Of a stretch of DNA of 64,000 nucleotides, positions 2,106 to 64,000 are shown piece by piece; the stretch's first letter is position 1; each line of letters opens with the position of its first letter. The notes under the pieces were generated by a model. It ran no database searches. It was not told the origin of the DNA and worked only from the letters and a program-made list of their open reading frames with translations. The stretch is from Vicugna vicugna (lineage: Eukaryota). The position numbers were made by a program, and so were the translations under genes. The stretch lies in the NCBI GenBank assembly GCA_013265495.1, contig MU058065.1, positions 1,772,364 through 1,836,363 on the forward strand, written 5' to 3'.

Positions 2106-4484
2106 AGGTGATAATAATAGAAATTACAAAATATTTACAGCTAAATATTAATGAAACTACTACATAACAATTCCTCTCTGCTGAGTCCCAGTATTTTCAG
2201 TTTCATGAAAATCCCCTTTGGAATTTATGAATCAACTGGGAAGAATTGACACCCTTCCTATATTTAATCTTTATTATGGTATTTACTCAGATCTACCTCT
2301 AAGTATTTCAGGAATGGTTTGTGGTTTCATCCGTTTAATCTTCACAATGACCCATTAAGATAATTATTCTTATGTTTCCTTTACTGAAAGGATGCAGGCT
2401 CAGAAAAGAGGAATAACTCGCTCTTGCAGCTGAAAGTTCACAGGGCCAGATGCTTCCAGGATGTCTTGCTGGAGGCTTAAACTTGGCCCTCAGTAAATGT
2501 TCATTAGAGCAAGTTGATCTTGGAAAGCCGTCTTGTTTTTCTGGTCCTTAGGTTCTCCTGGGAAGAAGGACTCTGCCTCCTAGAAGTCACATGCACTGGA
2601 ATCCAAGAAAACTTACCCATTCCCTCTAACTTATTTTGCTGGATCTGCACAGTATATTTGAAAGATTGAATTAGTTGCCCAGCTTTAAATGTGTGATGAT
2701 CGCTCATAAAATCTGGATTCCAACTTTTTTTGGACATTCTAAAGAACCAGAAACACTAGAGCTGCATTTTTTCATGGCAACTAATGGCAGGAGCTGAGTA
2801 GTTGTTGAACTCAGCCTAGCATTCATTTGCTTTACCTGCTTTTATTTTATGAGTAAGATTTAAACAATGAGTTAGTGACAGAACAAAAGTTAGGACCTTA
2901 GGAACCCGGGATCTCTGCCCCATCCACTGTATCAGTTTAAATTTTTTGCATGTGTGCCAGTTTCAGGGAAGCCTTGGAATCCTCATTCTCATTGGAAACT
3001 CACCGCAGGCCAGTGGTAGTCTATCAGACAGCAGATTTTCCTTCCCGTATCCGTTTCCATGAAAGTCTCTTTGTGCACCCGAAGCTAGTCAAGCCAAGAT
3101 CATCTCACATCTGGCTGAACAGGGAGGCGGCTAATCTCTTCCATGTGAGTTCACCCAGGATACTCTTAAACATCCCTCTCACAGGCTTATCAGCATTTCA
3201 TGGGTGCTGTGCCCGTCAAAAACTTCTCATCCCCTCCTTCCTTTCCACATGACTGCTCTGCCACTGCATGGTACTCAAATGTCAAAAAGACGGTGAGATG
3301 GCAGACTGTCAAATCTGCTCCTGAGTCTGAGCTCATTGCAACACCAAATGCTTCCAGTCACCTGGGAAATCACTCTGACAATCGCTACATATCGAGTTCA
3401 AGGTCAAAGTGAATTCTCAGCAAATGCTGCAAAAGTAGGCTTTCTGAGCATCTGTTTAAATAATTCATAACAACAGGGTGTATGCTGGCTTGAAAAGTGA
3501 GACATAAGATTTCATGTAAGTGACATTTTTCTATTATGTCTTAGAGGGTAAGGCAACTGGGTACCTCCCCACAGGACATGTGGTCGAGTGGTGATGATGC
3601 AGTCAAAATCCCTGGATTTTAGTCTAACCTTGCCCATCCTCTGTCATGGACTAAAACTGAAGGTTCTGACAGATAAGGAAGCCACATGTCAACCCTACAC
3701 ATCATATTTTAGCAAGACATCATTTTATGTCCAGAAAAAGGACATGCTGTGTCATCATCTATTTGAAGAGAATGGAAGGAAGGCACTTGGTGCCACCTCT
3801 CCATTCTCTGGAAAGCAGACATGCTAATGCAGTTCATCTTCCTTTTTAGACTTAGATGTGGGAAGAACCAAAGACTTACTTCATTCCCACAGTGTCAACT
3901 CATGCTGGAGGCCGGAGTCATGAGGTTTCCTAGAGGACGTAGAAGATGAGGGAATTAGCTATGTGGATATCTAGGGGGAAATTTATTCAATCACAGGGGC
4001 AGCTGGGACCAGTGTCCCAAGGAAGGAATGTGCCTGGAATGTTTATGGACTAAAAAGGCCAGTGTGACTAGGGTAGAACAGAGTGGCAGAGCAAAGGAGC
4101 GAATTTCTTATTCATTTTCTTGAGTTTTCTGGATATACAATCAAATTGTTTGTAAATGAGGATAACTATTTTGTCAGTTTCAACAGTTATACAAGTGATT
4201 TTTATCTCCTGCTTTGTTGCACTGAATACAATTTCAAGAATGATTTTTTTACTGCCTGCTTATGAAATATTTTTTACAGAAGCTGTGACAGTATACTCAA
4301 GGCTAATCAGATGCCTTCAGGAGAATGTATTTAGACCTGGACATCCTCGTTCAAGAGGCCTTATGACAAATGGAAACGTGTTCAAAAAACAGTGGCCATG
4401 ATGAACTCACAGTCCATGAACCCACATTAGATGACAAACAGTTGGAAAAACTGTGGTGTTCCTCTGGCGCATAGAGATTTCTAT

Positions 4485-4615
4485 TTTGTAGTAACCTATA
4501 ATGAAAAAGAATATGAAAATGAGTATCTGTATGTATATGCATGACTGAACTATTATGCTGTACACCAGAAATTGAAACAACATTGTAAACTGACTATACT
4601 TCAATTAAAAAAATA
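4485..4615 (+). mobile_element. L1 3' end fragment with A-tail
   Basis: gtagtaacctataatgaaaaagaatatgaa...cattgtaaactgactatacttcaattaaaaaaa; same family as 552-697. Confidence 0.85.
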
Positions 4616-36194: not shown

Positions 36195-36722
36195 GTGGTA
36201 GATTGCTTAAAGGCCAGAAATCCCTCCCATCTCACCCTGCATCCTTTGCAGTGTGACTCTGCTGGTTCCCATCCAGAATTGCAGCCTATTTTTCAAACTG
36301 CTGAACCTGAACTGGCCTCATGACTTATTTTCACCAATAGAATGAATGCACTGAAAGAGACATTACACAAATCCCAGCCCCTAAACCTCAAAAAGCCTTG
36401 CAGCTTCTGCCTTTGCCTTTTTGGAAAACTTGAAATTGCCATAAGAGGAAGCTAATCTGGCCTAGTGGAGGATGAGAGATCGTGGATGACAACTGAGACA
36501 CCCCAGCCAATAGCCAGCACCTGCCAGATGTGTAAAAGAGGTCATTTTGGACTTTGAGCCCCAGAGACCTCCAGCTGAAGGCTGTTGCATGAATGAGTCC
36601 AGGTCACACCAGTGGAGGATCTGCCCAGTCAACCCTTAGAAACGTGAGAAATAACAAATCTAGTGTTTTTAAGTCACTAAGTTTTGTGGTGTTTCGTTAA
36701 GCTGCAATAAGCAACTGATACA
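36195..36722 (+). mobile_element. MaLR MLT1 LTR
   Basis: tgtggtagattg...gtgagaaataacaaatc...tttaagtcactaagttttgtggtgtttcgttaagctgcaataagcaactgataca. Confidence 0.82.
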
Positions 36723-37310
36723 GCTATCCAGCATATTTCAGTGAATCTGGGTGAGGAAGGATCCTGGGAGTCTACAATAAGGACAAGAATAATGATGTAA
36801 CAGCACCTCACAGTCAGCAATGCCTGCAGCAATAAGGCAGAGTCCACATCAGGAGTAGCGATGCGATGTATGGGCCACCCTCATTCTTCTCTGCTCCAAG
36901 AGAAGGTATAGTCATGTTCTAAAAATAAAAAAAGTAAGTATCATTAATTATTCTATGTCTGAAAGAGTAAGTGGCAATAACATAGTCAAGAAAAAGACCC
37001 TCTGCTTTTCTGATTTCACTTTAAGCTTAGAAGATACAAGCAGAGCTTGCTTGGAAGCACAGTGCGTGATCACATACAGCAGGAAAGAGGGATTCCCCAC
37101 TGCACTGTTAAGCAGAGTACTGGTTGTGGGAAAGAGGACACAGATCTTTCCCGACTACCACGGATAACTCAGCATTCACTCTGTCAAGGGCAGTGGGTAG
37201 GATTTGATTGAAGTAATATTTTCCTCCCTAATCCCTCAAGCAAATGACCTAAAAAAAGGTACTTTATAATACTACTTTGCCTTTCTAAAACACTTCATAC
37301 TTTTTTTTTT

Positions 37311-37484
37311 CAGCTTTCAACATTTTTTTTTTGCACTTTCAACATTGTGAAATATCTCTAAAATTTTTAAAGTGACTTTCTTTACTGGGGTAACTTTCTC
37401 TAAGATATCTTCATTCTTTTGGTCGCAACCATTTTCCTCATTTATGTCATTAAGTTTGCTTTCACTAAGTTCCTCTAGCTGCAG
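37311..37484 (-). mobile_element. Tigger-family transposase C-terminal relic, part of a chimeric insertion
   Basis: Minus-strand translation [51 protein letters not shown] resembles recalled Tigger (Tigger13-like) C-terminal text QPEELSEGEL.DINEESGCDEKDEDVPEEV. Confidence 0.65.
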
Positions 37485-38072
37485 AAGTGGCTGCACCAAA
37501 CTGCATTCCCACCAGCAGTGTAGGAGGGTTCCCCTTTCTCCACAGCCTCTCCAGCATTTGTCCTTTGTGGATTTTTGAATGATGGCCATTCTGACTGGTG
37601 TGAGGTGATACCTCATTGTAGTTTTGATTTGCATTTCTCTGATAATTAGTGATATTGAGCATTTTTTCATGTGCTTTTTGATCATTTGTATGTCTTCCTT
37701 GGAGAATTGCTTGTTTAGGTCTTCTGCCCATTTTTGGATTGGGTTGTTTATTTTTTTCTTATTGAGTCGTATGAGCTGCTTATATATTCTGGAGATCAAG
37801 CCTTTGTCGGTTTCACTTGCAAAAATTTTCTCCCATTCCGTAGGTTTTCTTCTTGTTTTACTTCTTGTTTCCTTTGCTCTGCAGAAGCTTGTAAGTTTCA
37901 TTAGGTCCCATTTGTTTATTCTTGCTTTTATTTCTTCTAGGAGAAAATTTTTGAAATGTATGTCAGATAATGTTTTGCCTATGTTTTCCTCTAGGAGGTT
38001 TATTGTATCTTGTCTTATGTTTAAGTCTTTAATCCATTTTGAGTTGATTTTTGTATATGGTGTAAGGGTGTG
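37485..38072 (-). mobile_element. L1 ORF2 C-terminal fragment with open frame
   Basis: Translates [11 protein letters not shown]...PTEWEKIFA...[23 protein letters not shown]...[18 protein letters not shown], the L1 ORF2 CCHC region. Stops at LVQPL with no 3' UTR. Confidence 0.95.
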
Positions 38073-38540
38073 TAAAACACTTCATAATTTTTTAACTTTC
38101 ATTTTTCAAGAGATTTGCTTTGAACCTAGTGGGTAAGATAGGAAACATTGTATTATCCTCATGTTAAAAATTTTTTTTGAATCTTAAGTCCAGATAAAAA
38201 CTTGCCCAACATCTAATTGATAAACACATCAATATCCCTTAGTACTTGAATCACCCCAAGTTCAATGGATCCTCGTGAGGAGGTAGAGGCCCCTCATATT
38301 CAGTGGGTCTGGGATAAAACCATGAATCTGTATGTTTAACAAGTATTCCAAGTGATTCTTATGCGCTTGGTCCTCAGATCAGTTTTAGGAAAACACTGGA
38401 GGAGTTTGGAAACATAGTGCTGGAGCAACGTGAATTCAGCCCCAGCCCTACCCCTCACTGGCTGTTTGACTTTGGGCCAGTTTCTCTCTCTGTAACTTAT
38501 CTCAAAATTTTCATCTATAAAATGGGGCCCAGAACAGTAC

Positions 38541-38992: not shown

Positions 38993-40214
38993 AGTATCCA
39001 CTTCTCAAATTTGCACTCAGACCCTAAGGAGATAAATGTGCATAACATATTTAGCACAGTGTCTGGCACTTCTAAACTGTCATGAATGAGAGGCATTAAC
39101 TGTTATTAATGTTCCATTGTCTCCCTTCTTTCTGCCTTTACTACAGATGGTGACGGGGACATATAAATACAATGTAGACAAGAGTACCGACCTTTTCAAA
39201 ATGCTTTTTATATACTAGGAGAATAAATGATCTGGTATGTTTTCTCTATTTTAGAAGCTACAAGGAAATATAACAATTACACAAATCCTATTGATGCACG
39301 CAGGATCTGAAAACTCCTGGGAAACAGGGCAACTGCCTTGGCACTTTCTTCTGCTTTATAAAGCAGCTTTTTTTTTCCTTTAATGCTGCTTTTAATAATA
39401 TTACTTGGGCCCCAGGGTAATAAGTCTTTTCTAATCTTTTGCCTTTTGTACAGGGTTTTCCAATTGGTTTGAGGTTTTATTTGCTTATTTATGCCTCAAC
39501 TAATAGAGTTGTTGAATCCCTTGGAAATTAAAGTACTCTAAAGAGTTTACTGTTTAATTCGATAATTAAATTCCCCATAGCCTCTCACGATGTGGTGCTT
39601 CTTACAAAGAGAATACCCACCATTAAAATGTAAGTAGACGTGGGCAAGAAGCAATTCTCAGTGTAACCATGTCTACTCTCATTACCTCCCAGCAAATTAT
39701 CCACTTTGTAGACTATCTGCTAAAAACTCAAACTCTTATCAAAGAGAGTAAATGAGAGGGAAGGAACTGGCTCTGCCATTAACCCTTTAGTGGCTTTTTG
39801 CAAAAGCCTGAAAGCTCTCGAAATATGTCGTTTCTTGGTTGGTATGGCAGGGACAGGTAACTATGTCATGCACCCAAGTTTTCCATGAAGTTGTCAGAAT
39901 TTCCAGCTAGGGTCGTTAGCAGACGGCCAGAGTCCAACCTTCTGCAAGACAAAGAAATATTCTTCCAGCCCCTTCAAAGGTATATGGGAGTCAATATCTC
40001 GTAAGATAAATAAAATTGGGTATGGTTTGCTCTTTATAATATCTCCCTTCAGGGACCTGAGAATGATAACTTACCTCACCTTTGTAAAATCCTTTACAAT
40101 TTTTGAAGTTCATTCAAGGGATTGAACGTGATCCTGTGAAGTAAGATAAGGCACATTTTATTGTCCCCTCTTTTAAAAAACTGACTATATCTCACCATAT
40201 TTTGCAGCCTTAAA

Positions 40215-46216: not shown

Positions 46217-46485
46217 AAATAAACTTATGGTTACCAGGGAGAAAAGGGGGTGGGAAGCGATAAATTGGGAATTTGAGATTTGCAGATACTAACAACTACA
46301 TACAAAATAGATTAACAAGTTTCTTCAGTATGGCACAGGGAACTATATTTGGTATCTTGTAGTAACCTATAATAAAAAAAGCTATGAAAAGGAATATATG
46401 TATGTATATGTATGACTGAAATACTATGCTGTACACCAGAAATTGAAACATTGCAACTGACTATATTTCAATTTATTAAAAAAAA
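46217..46485 (+). mobile_element. L1 3' end with A-tail
   Basis: aaacttatggttaccaggg...gataaattgggaatttgagatttgcagatac...tgactatatttcaatttattaaaaaaaa. Confidence 0.9.
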
Positions 46486-60469: not shown

Positions 60470-61435
60470 TAGCAAAACTTATATACAAACGTTCATAGCC
60501 ACATTATTTGTAATAGCCAAAAAGTGAAAATAACTTAAATGTCCAACGACTGATGAATGGATAAACAAAATGTAGCATAGTCATACAATGGAATATTATT
60601 CAGCCGTGAAAAGGAATAAAATACAGATCTTCCTTGATGTATGGTGGGGTTACATCCCGATAAAGCCACTGTAAGTTGAAAATATGAAATGTCATAAAAT
60701 GCATCTAATTCACCTAACCTGCCAAACATTATAGTTCTGCCTAGCCCACTTTAAACATGTTTGGAACACATACGTTAGCCTAGAGTTGTGTAAAATCACA
60801 TAACACAAAGCCTACTTTATACATGAAATGTTGACTACCTCACGTAGTTTATTGAATTCTATACCGAAAGTGAAAGACAGAATGGTTGTGAGTGTGTCGG
60901 TTGTTTACCCTCATGATCACGTGCCTAACTGGGAGCTGTGGTCACTGCTGCAACCTAAAATCATGAGTGTGTCATACCCTATATCACAAACCCAGGAAAA
61001 GATCAAAATTCAAAATTCGAAATATGGTTTCTACTAACAGCGTATCGCTTTTGCACCACCGTGAGGTGGAAAATCATCGGTCCAACCATCATAAGTCAGG
61101 GACCACCTGGACTGATGCATGATACAACATGGATGAACCTTGAAAACATTGTACTGACAGAAGCCATATACAAAAAGCCACATTTATATGATTCTATTTT
61201 TATGAAATTGCCAGAGTAGGTGAATCTGTAAAGAAAGAATGTAGATTAGTAATTACAGGGCTAGGGGGAAAGAGGACAGACTAGGAAGTCACTGCTAATG
61301 GGGACAAGGTGATGAAAATGTTTTGATATTAGGTCAATGATGATGGCTGCAAAATTCTATGAATATACTAGAAACCACTGAATTTTGCACTTTAAAAGGG
61401 TAACTTTATGATTGATGAATTATATCTCAATTTTA
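60470..61435 (+). mobile_element. L1M 3' end split by a Tigger MITE
   Basis: gttcatagccacattatttgtaatagccaaaaagtg...ggaataaaata, resuming after the MITE as ctgatgcatgatacaacatggatgaaccttgaaaacatt...gaattatatctcaatttt. Confidence 0.85.
60624..61109. mobile_element. TcMar-Tigger MITE (MER6-like; subfamily tentative)
   Basis: ta|cagatcttccttgatgtatggtggggttacatcccgataaa ... ccatcataagtcagggaccacctg, with imperfect terminal inverted repeats. Confidence 0.75.
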
Positions 61436-61865: not shown

Positions 61866-62535
61866 GGAAAATATGTGAAGATAGAACACAGTTTTACCAG
61901 AGCTCTTGTCTTCTTGCCACTAAAGTTCACCAACTTCTTACCGTTTCCCATGTTTTGGAATAATTTTTTCTTAATTTCTAGAAATTCTGCATAACCAGTT
62001 TTAAAAACTTCTGTCAGTAGACGAATGATGAAAATATAATTTTAAAATTATATACTCTCATCATCCAAAGGTGGCATAACATTTATTTTCTACCCACCAA
62101 TTATTTTCAAACAAAAGGGAATGTAATTTTATTTAGCTTGGTCACTTTATCAGAACAGCTAGGGAATACACATCACACCAAAATATGTTTTTAGTAAAAT
62201 CACAACATGAGTTTCATAGAGAATTAGTTTGTTGTTGTACTAATTACTTTCACCACCCAAAGAAATAGCGTGGAACAATGCATGCAAAAAGAATTTTTTT
62301 AAATAACTTCTTTCCGTATAAAACTATGAATACAAAAGTGAAAGCAAATTAAAAAGCAGCACACGTAAGATGCTCTTGTTTACTTGTTTGTAGTGTATAA
62401 AACGTGAAAAGAAGAGGAAGTGAAGGCTGTTAATAGTAGCTGTCTCTGAGCAGATGGATGGCTGGCGGTCTTAGCCTGTTCATTCTCATCTGTGTCCTCT
62501 GACTTTTCTGTCATAGAGATCTCATAAAAGAGGAT

Positions 62536-64000
62536 GGGACCAAAATGGCAAAGTAGGAAGACCCTGAACTCACCTCCTCCCAGGGACACACTAAAATTAC
62601 AACTATTTACACATCAACTATCTGTAAGAAAAACCTGAAGACTGGCAAAAAGAAAAGAATTTCCACAACTAAAGACATAAAGAAGGAATCACAACAAGAC
62701 AGGTTGGAGGGGCAGAGATGTGATATAGTCAGACCCACATCCCAGGTCAGTGACTCACAAATGGTGGGACTATCACAACTGTAGAAGCCCTCCCCAGGGA
62801 GTGAGGGGTCCAAGTCCAACATTGGGCTTCTCAACCAGGGGCTCCTGCCCTGGGAAGATGGGTCCCCAGATGTCTGGCTTTGGAAACAAGCAGGGCTCAT
62901 GTTTGGGAGAGCTGGAGGGTTACGGGAAACACCGACTCTGCTCCTAAAGGGAGCACACAAAGTCTCACATGCCTCAAGTCTAAGCACAGAGGCAGTACTT
63001 TGAAAGGAGCCTGAGTCAGACCTGCTTGCTGAACTTGGGGAGCCTCCTGGAGAGACAGAAGGCAGCGGGGACCCCCCGAGACACTGGAGTCAAGCACTTC
63101 TGGGAGCTGGTTCCAGCACAACAGCAGCAGCACTGCCAAGCTCCATTTTGAAATACTCCCCCCAGCCTATCAGCACTGGGGACCCAGCCCCGGCCTCCAG
63201 CAGGCTGGCATGAGCATCAGGCCGCACAGACAGACCCTACAAGACCTGGCCCCCCACCAGCAGGCTAGCAGCAGTCCCACACCCCCTAGGACTCACAGCC
63301 AATTTGTCAGGAAGCCTATCACACCTTACAGCAGGCCTGTTGCCTCCTCAAGAGAGATGGCCTCCCAGTCAACCAGGCCCGGATCCAGCCCCGGGATCCA
63401 GCCCCACCTACCAGCACGCTCACAGTTGTTAGCTCCACCACAGCAGAAGAGTGCATCCAGCCCTCATAGGGGGCACCCCTAGAGCATACAGCTCTGGTGA
63501 CCAGAAGGGAGTGTGCTTCTGGGCCCCAGAGGACATCTCCTACATAAGGCCACTTCTCCAAGATAAGGAAATGCAACCAACCTACCTAACTCATAGATAT
63601 AAACATAGACAAATGGGCAAATGAGATGACAGAAGAATATGTCCCTAATGAAGGAACAAGAAAAAAACCTCAGAAAAAGAACTAAATGAAGAGGACATAA
63701 GAAATCTACCTGATAGGTTAGGTAAGGATCATCAAGATGCTCACAGAACTCGGGAGAAGAATAAACATACCCAGTGACGATTCAAGAAACAGCTAGAAAA
63801 TATAAAGAAGAAGCAAACAGAGCTAAAGAATGCAATAAATGAAATAAAAAATATACTAGAAGGAATCAACAGTAGATTAGATGACACATAGCAATTAATT
63901 GGCCATCTGGAACATAGAACAGGGGAAATTACTCACTAGAGCAAAAAAAAAAGGAAAAAGTTTTTTCTAAATGAGGACAGTTTGACACTTCTGGAACAAC
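62536..64000 (+). mobile_element. L1 5' end: about 1.1 kb 5' UTR plus disrupted ORF1, continuing past the window
   Basis: Starts gggaccaaaatggc (YY1-type AAAATGGC). ORF1 relic from 63621 reads MR*QKNMSLMKEQEK...ELKNAINEIKNILEGINSRLDD with stops and frameshifts. Confidence 0.88.

Follow-up and report, generated by a model that had tools for sequence, protein, structure and literature searches.

Results and Discussion

The window (the whole stretch of DNA that was analysed, 64 kb in length) contains a real and well-formed chimeric insertion, in which a piece of L1 ORF2, a piece of an old repeat and a short A run follow one another in this order, in a common minus-strand orientation and in one frame, within a single target-site duplication (TSD). 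Both pieces were probably carried here by one L1-primed insertion of some kind, a reading to which we give a probability of about 0.8. It agrees with the preliminary description, which had proposed a single L1-mediated event, and it is borne out by the long TSD, the endonuclease-type site, the 5' truncation at the TSD edge and the co-orientation of the two pieces. Regarding the joining step, we tentatively favour, at somewhat less than even odds, a template switch in which the RNA bearing the repeat was copied first and the L1 RNA afterwards. The chimera is likely a dead and putatively single copy, left by a one-off accident of L1 copying, and not a new mobile family: with no promoter, no L1 3' UTR and an ORF2 cut in its C-terminal domain, it would have been dead on arrival and therefore single-copy. 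In its workings it resembles both retro-DNAs and template-switch chimeras, but it departs from each in one defining feature, the fusion to L1 in the former case and the reversed order in the latter. The coordinates of its components are given in Table 1.

Table 1. Components of the chimeric insertion and of its target site.
Feature	Position	Strand	Remarks
TSD, 5' copy	38073..38093	-	21 bp; exact 14-bp core at 38073-38086; outer edge TT/AAAAAA
L1 ORF2 fragment	37485..38072	-	5'-truncated at the TSD, 3'-broken just past the CCHC motif; frame open
Junction	37478..37495	-	hexamer TGCAGC present twice, starts 12 nt apart
Piece from the interior of an old mammalian repeat of high copy number, putatively Tigger-like	37311..37484	-	174 bp
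A10 tail	37301..37310	-	T10 on the plus strand; six A's match the A6 of the target
TSD, 3' copy	37286..37306	-	single mismatch at 37300
Predicted fusion ORF, 194 aa, ATG to stop	37317..37901	-	inside a 254-aa stop-to-stop frame, 38081-37317

General features of the insertion site

The direct repeat of 14 bp, identical in its two copies (37286-37299 and 38073-38086), is a unique pair within the 64-kb window; with a single mismatch allowed, it lengthens to 21 bp (37286-37306 / 38073-38093). The perfect 14-bp repeat reported earlier is thus confirmed as an exact pair, but the duplication itself is longer. For an L1-type insertion a TSD of roughly 7-20 bp is expected, and the values found here are 14 bp exact and 21 bp with one mismatch. 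The minus-strand 5' border of the 21-bp TSD reads GTT/AAAAAA, an L1 endonuclease-type TT/AAAA site. A 14-mer was shared in 13 of 200,000 zone pairs drawn at random (each zone 40 bp long, the two 600-1000 bp apart), and after removal of low-complexity words the window has six exact repeats of at least 14 bp at 100-2000 bp spacing, the TSD among them. On the strength of this chance count and this census the TSD is real, and its copies are placed at both ends of the insert. A further exact direct repeat, of 13 bp, encloses the insert at 36362-36374 / 39276-39288; its copies are 2914 bp apart, no element was matched to them, and they likely occur by chance.

Other repeats are found elsewhere in the window. 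The stretch at about 62530-64000 (plus strand) has, by eye, the look of an older L1 that runs off the end of the window, with its 5' UTR and a decayed beginning of ORF1. At about 60620-61110, what is presumably, again by eye, an old element of Tigger type lies within the 3' part of an old L1. Three copies of a repeat of 134-146 bp (553-698, 4482-4614 and 46340-46484) are 84-89% alike, and probably represent a short interspersed element. No tRNA genes were identified by ARAGORN in positions 1-36000.

Identity of the two pieces

The L1 fragment, of about 585 bp, matches human ORF2p (PDB 8uw3, 9k6g) from residue 953 to 1153/1154 with an E value of 5e-83, the match covering residues 6-200 of the open frame. 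The last identical residue is 1153 of the 1275 in the human protein, past the CCHC motif, and what is absent is the last ~122 residues of ORF2p together with the whole L1 3' UTR. This alignment bears out the earlier claim of some 590 bp of L1 ORF2 that end just past the CCHC motif and have no L1 3' UTR. Compared with human LINE-1 ORF2p, the fragment has the same residues 953-1153, CCHC motif included, but it is without the endonuclease, the reverse transcriptase core and the last ~122 residues. At its other end, the L1 sequence begins directly at the TSD edge, reading H-T-L-T-P-Y from 38072, in agreement with the LEHS or LEHF that precedes LTPYT in 66 of the 93 readable homologues (out of 120). 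A protein search with 172 L1 residues gave a top identity of 75% among the best 120 of 7530 matches, and the named L1 proteins among these 120 are from pig and porpoise, matches that are compatible with a relative of even-toed ungulates or whales. Set against the best 120 homologues, the fragment carries a residue other than the majority one in 38 of 172 columns, and it shows two in-frame gaps, of 6 aa and 1 aa, which also set it apart from the human protein. The six-residue gap lies at about 37930-37940 on the minus strand and is seen against nearly all of the 120 homologues, with the one-residue gap further on.

The 3' piece is of a different kind. Its 54-residue translation (37481-37317) matches 101 protein clusters, with identities of 38-70%, and almost all of these are short unnamed ORFs; one, a sturgeon repeat protein (P0037), was dropped as unrelated before the later counts of repeat relatives. 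A profile built from 51 relatives has a single significant match in the six frames of the window, from 37484 onward (E 5e-29). The piece has one codon missing, loses the family frame at an internal A10 run, and departs from the majority residue of its family at 17 of 55 protein columns (31%, the median of the matches being 35%), in the manner of fossil copies, whereas the L1 frame is open. The family is also present within a sperm whale SLC38A9 gene model (P0125), over ~135 residues that are probably a mispredicted exon. From its presence there we infer that the family is far older than the open frame suggests for the L1 part, and it supports the assignment of the 3' piece to an old, widespread mammalian interspersed repeat, copied from elsewhere. 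This gene model was the one longer relative among 8000 scored candidates, in which no full transposase was found. The 64-kb window has no second copy of the piece.

Terminal inverted repeats are not seen: among the 12 inverted pairs there is none that connects the two ends of the piece or those of the insert. The sequence type is presumably that of an internally deleted Tigger element. Among its Atlas neighbours are a Jerky-like cluster (0.94) and a TIGD6-like one (0.88), with a recognition value of 1849, below the bar of 2300, and a second Atlas search gave no usable match. Searches for the pogo/Tigger transposase domains (CENP-B-type HTH, DDE_1) returned no Pfam match for the piece, for its 51 relatives or for seven longer relatives, and a PDB search with the piece gave no match. 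These tools point weakly to the Tigger name. From the preliminary description, which spoke of about 175 bp of Tigger-like transposase, an old interspersed repeat of 174 bp can be retained, the transposase being confirmed by neither Pfam nor PDB.

The possibility that 37311-37484 is the normal 3' end of a catalogued L1 is ruled out, as the piece belongs to a separate old repeat and L1 sequence accompanies it in 0 of 126 relatives; conversely, the repeat is found in 0 of 120 L1 homologues. Four relatives (P0002, P0006, P0026 and P0103) have the one-codon gap and several residues in common with 37317-37481, and the gap occurs in its exact form in 4 of 100 repeat matches. Three of them, P0002, P0006 and P0026, were considered as orthologues of the parent copy and rejected, with permutation p values of 0.36 for the best and 0.24 for the third best, and with a tree in which they and the piece form no group.

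The joint, the tail and the reading frame

The repeated TGCAGC noted earlier at the junction is present on the minus strand, with one copy on each side of the joint (37495-37490 and 37483-37478). At this point L1 reads V-Q-P-L and the repeat profile M-Q-P-E. When the two pieces were joined at random, a common hexamer within 10-12 nt was observed in 2-4% of cases, so that the repeated hexamer is near chance level and suggestive only.

The tail is weak. The 10-nt poly(A) of the preliminary description exists as a T10 run at 37301-37310, but six of its ten A's match the target and lie within the 21-bp TSD, leaving ~4 extra. Neither AATAAA nor ATTAAA occurs in the 174-nt repeat piece, and the variant poly(A) hexamers that it does contain end 55-130 nt ahead of the tail. 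Such a weak tail, with the canonical poly(A) signal missing, is consistent with priming inside the RNA or at a short tail, for which there is a precedent in the available part of PMC5322556. The 3' end of the insert (37307-37345) also slightly resembles the flank at 38094-38130, and 2.6% of random 37-mers score as high.

The 194-aa fusion ORF reported across the joint does exist. In-frame joining is a 1-in-3 event, however, and does not count as evidence of function; the predicted ORF is judged to be incidental, a verdict reached from the sequence. Its ATG falls where human ORF2p has Ile, and it ends where the repeat piece shifts frame at the A-run. As a candidate gene it was rejected on its non-conserved ATG, on the fact that no promoter was seen and on the frame shift that ends the reading. 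No fused L1-repeat protein was detected at E 0.01 among 18 candidates.

Origin of the chimera

According to the template-switch reading, ORF2p would nick the target at the TT/AAAA-type site, and the T-rich 3' end of the target would prime on a cellular RNA, such as an intron RNA, at a short A-tract or a short tail. The primed RNA would cross a fossil copy of the repeat, of which 174 nt would be copied. The enzyme would then jump into L1 RNA just behind the CCHC codons, perhaps aided by the common TGCAGC, and copy ~585 nt of it before stopping, as in ordinary 5' truncation. The individual steps have parallels in the available parts of three papers: ORF2p performs template jumping in vitro (PMC10830420), internal switching onto U5 RNA is described (PMC4476161), and there are nine de novo two-RNA insertions, of which the same-orientation ones are ascribed to template switching or RNA ligation (PMC11702581). 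Two observations speak against such a switch. The catalogued chimeras with which we compared the insert have the L1 3' end last, the opposite order, and two TGCAGC are kept where a clean microhomology switch would leave one; the kept pair fits a repair-type joining equally well. The evidence at the locus also fits both a template switch and an RNA that was already joined. Twin priming at the site is ruled out, since both pieces have the same orientation.

An already joined RNA might derive from a locus elsewhere at which the old repeat lies directly next to a 3'-broken L1 or to the inverted arm of a 5'-inverted one. Read-through RNA from such a locus, with priming at a short A-tract, would have been copied here by ORF2p in trans, on one or a few occasions. 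The L1-first order would then be explained without an unusual jump. TSD-flanked 3'-truncated L1s do exist, 90 against 708 full-length elements in the portion of PMC5322556 available, and Tang and Liang removed DNA-transposon pieces at 50 bp or less from a retrotransposon as possible transductions (PMC11195612, available text). We nevertheless consider this origin rather unlikely, as two rare steps are needed and the activity must be supplied in trans: ~122 C-terminal residues are missing, and the C-terminal domain of ORF2p is needed for retrotransposition (PMC10830420, available text). Moreover, the canonical poly(A) signal is absent, and no source was found in the 64-kb window or in metagenome contigs, a null that is near-uninformative. 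Splicing offers another way to the same kind of molecule: in an L1 read-through RNA, a cryptic donor just past the CCHC codons would be spliced to an acceptor within a repeat further downstream, and the product would afterwards be retrotransposed. L1 RNAs are indeed spliced and their products retrotranspose, according to the available part of PMC5860796, and the orientation agrees; but CTGCAG is retained just inside the 3' piece instead of ending ahead of it, and we regard this path as highly improbable.

The joint could also postdate the insertion. An ordinary 5'-truncated L1 would then have made the TSD, and after a subsequent break had taken away its 3' end, the gap would have been filled with 174 bp copied from a repeat far away, a stub of the tail staying in place. 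Both the doubled hexamer at one joint and the A-runs at the opposite one are traces expected of microhomology-driven patching. Such a patch, however, must have stopped within ~4 bases of the TSD, in the same orientation and with its A's exactly at the tail position, which makes later repair improbable. We give similarly little credence to the insert as one 5'-truncated copy of a non-autonomous L1-derived family, spread from a master, in which the 3' end had been exchanged for the repeat piece. The frame that stays open across the joint speaks for it. The tail extending only ~4 bases beyond the target and the missing canonical poly(A) signal speak against it, as do the protein searches, in which the fusion was found in none of 18 candidates, L1 in none of the 126 repeat relatives and the repeat in none of the 120 L1 homologues; these nulls are weak, because the lineage is poorly covered, with a best L1 protein match of just 75% identity. 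A lineage-specific L1 derivative present at many sites, with the ORF2p C-terminus and the whole 3' UTR replaced in frame by a DNA-transposon fossil, is improbable to the same degree.

What the chimera means depends on these alternatives. If present only once, it neatly illustrates how the L1 machinery moves a piece of a fossil repeat, and no general picture is changed. If the template switch that we tentatively favour is true, ORF2p started on a foreign RNA and returned to its own. If, on the other hand, the junction recurs under many TSDs, it would represent a natural swap of the L1 3' end between two classes of mobile element, and would bear on how L1 families gain new ends and on how far the C-terminus of ORF2p is replaceable.

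Occurrence in sequencing data

The distribution of the region 36800-37600 was assessed with 80 sampled words. Of the 22 sequencing runs listed, 18 contain 0.80-0.93 of the words; they bear four organism labels and come from six studies. The flank and generic L1 words explain ~0.73 of them at most. Because the best shares exceed this ceiling, the runs that reach them contain the repeat piece; in the top run (0.93) the joints are probably present too. For the lower shares the excess over 0.73 amounts to only 1-2 standard errors, given the 80 words. The list is confined to runs with the highest shares, so that a run without the insert would not appear in it, and the highest of them may come from the same sample as the window itself. 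Scans of metagenome contigs gave 597 and 593 pattern matches with 0 confirmed, a result that is near-uninformative, being without a positive control.

Comparison with known chimeric insertions

The literature search, the scope of which lay outside subscription journals, Repbase and Dfam, found neither this locus described nor any insertion in which L1 comes first and Tigger last. A survey of camelid repeats (PMC8605555) counts ~42,000 Tigger copies, and the word "chimeric" is absent from its available text.

Some known types of insertion have two sources of sequence within one TSD. Among them, normal L1 3' transduction retains the L1 3' UTR ahead of the extra piece, whereas the insert has neither the last ~122 codons nor any part of the 3' UTR. 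In place of an intact L1 3' end, the ORF2 match ends at residue 1153-1154 of 1275 and the repeat follows directly. The likeness to L1 3' transduction, as described in the available part of PMC6500023, lies in the succession of L1, non-L1 sequence and tail within one TSD. The de novo two-RNA insertions of PMC11702581 (available text) likewise have a TSD and a poly(A) around the sequences of two transcripts, but they are cell-culture events. The U6/L1, Alu/L1 and mRNA/L1 chimeras, for which the available parts of bioRxiv 10.1101/2025.02.02.635956 and PMC4476161 propose template switching or RNA ligation, are also similar to the insert, with two co-oriented RNA-derived pieces, one TSD and an endonuclease site; here too, both pieces lie in one orientation (minus strand, one frame) within one TSD. 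In these chimeras, however, the foreign piece lies on the 5' side and the sequence closes with the L1 3' end and its tail, whereas in the insert the order is reversed, L1 coming first, its 3' end being absent and the foreign piece carrying the tail. The pipeline of Law and Burns (bioRxiv 10.1101/2025.02.02.635956) examined only the sequence 5' of L1, and the available text of their paper contains neither "Tigger" nor "DNA transposon".

The retro-DNAs of Tang and Liang (F1000Res 2024, PMC11195612) are, in the available part of that paper, 748 primate events, of which 221 are Tigger, with a mean of 209 bp and long TSDs, and they are ascribed to L1 priming. With 221 Tigger retro-DNAs published, the headline of the preliminary description, that a DNA-transposon piece had moved by retrotransposition, is already known. 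The repeat piece resembles them in being internal, without terminal inverted repeats, ~200 bp long and A-rich at its end, and in having a long TSD and a TT/AAAA site. Retro-DNAs are recognized by a TSD of at least 8 bp and the lack of terminal inverted repeats, both of which are found here, and by a position not within 50 bp of a retrotransposon, whereas this piece is fused directly to L1 ORF2. They also differ in being described from primates only, and in that here the repeat piece and L1 ORF2 are fused within one TSD. As far as the available texts go, the order with L1 first and the foreign, tailed piece last was omitted by design in both published surveys, one of which looked only 5' of L1 and the other of which applied the 50-bp filter, and this gap points to a small uncounted class of insertions. 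The chimera works like a retro-DNA, yet falls outside that group by the 50-bp filter.
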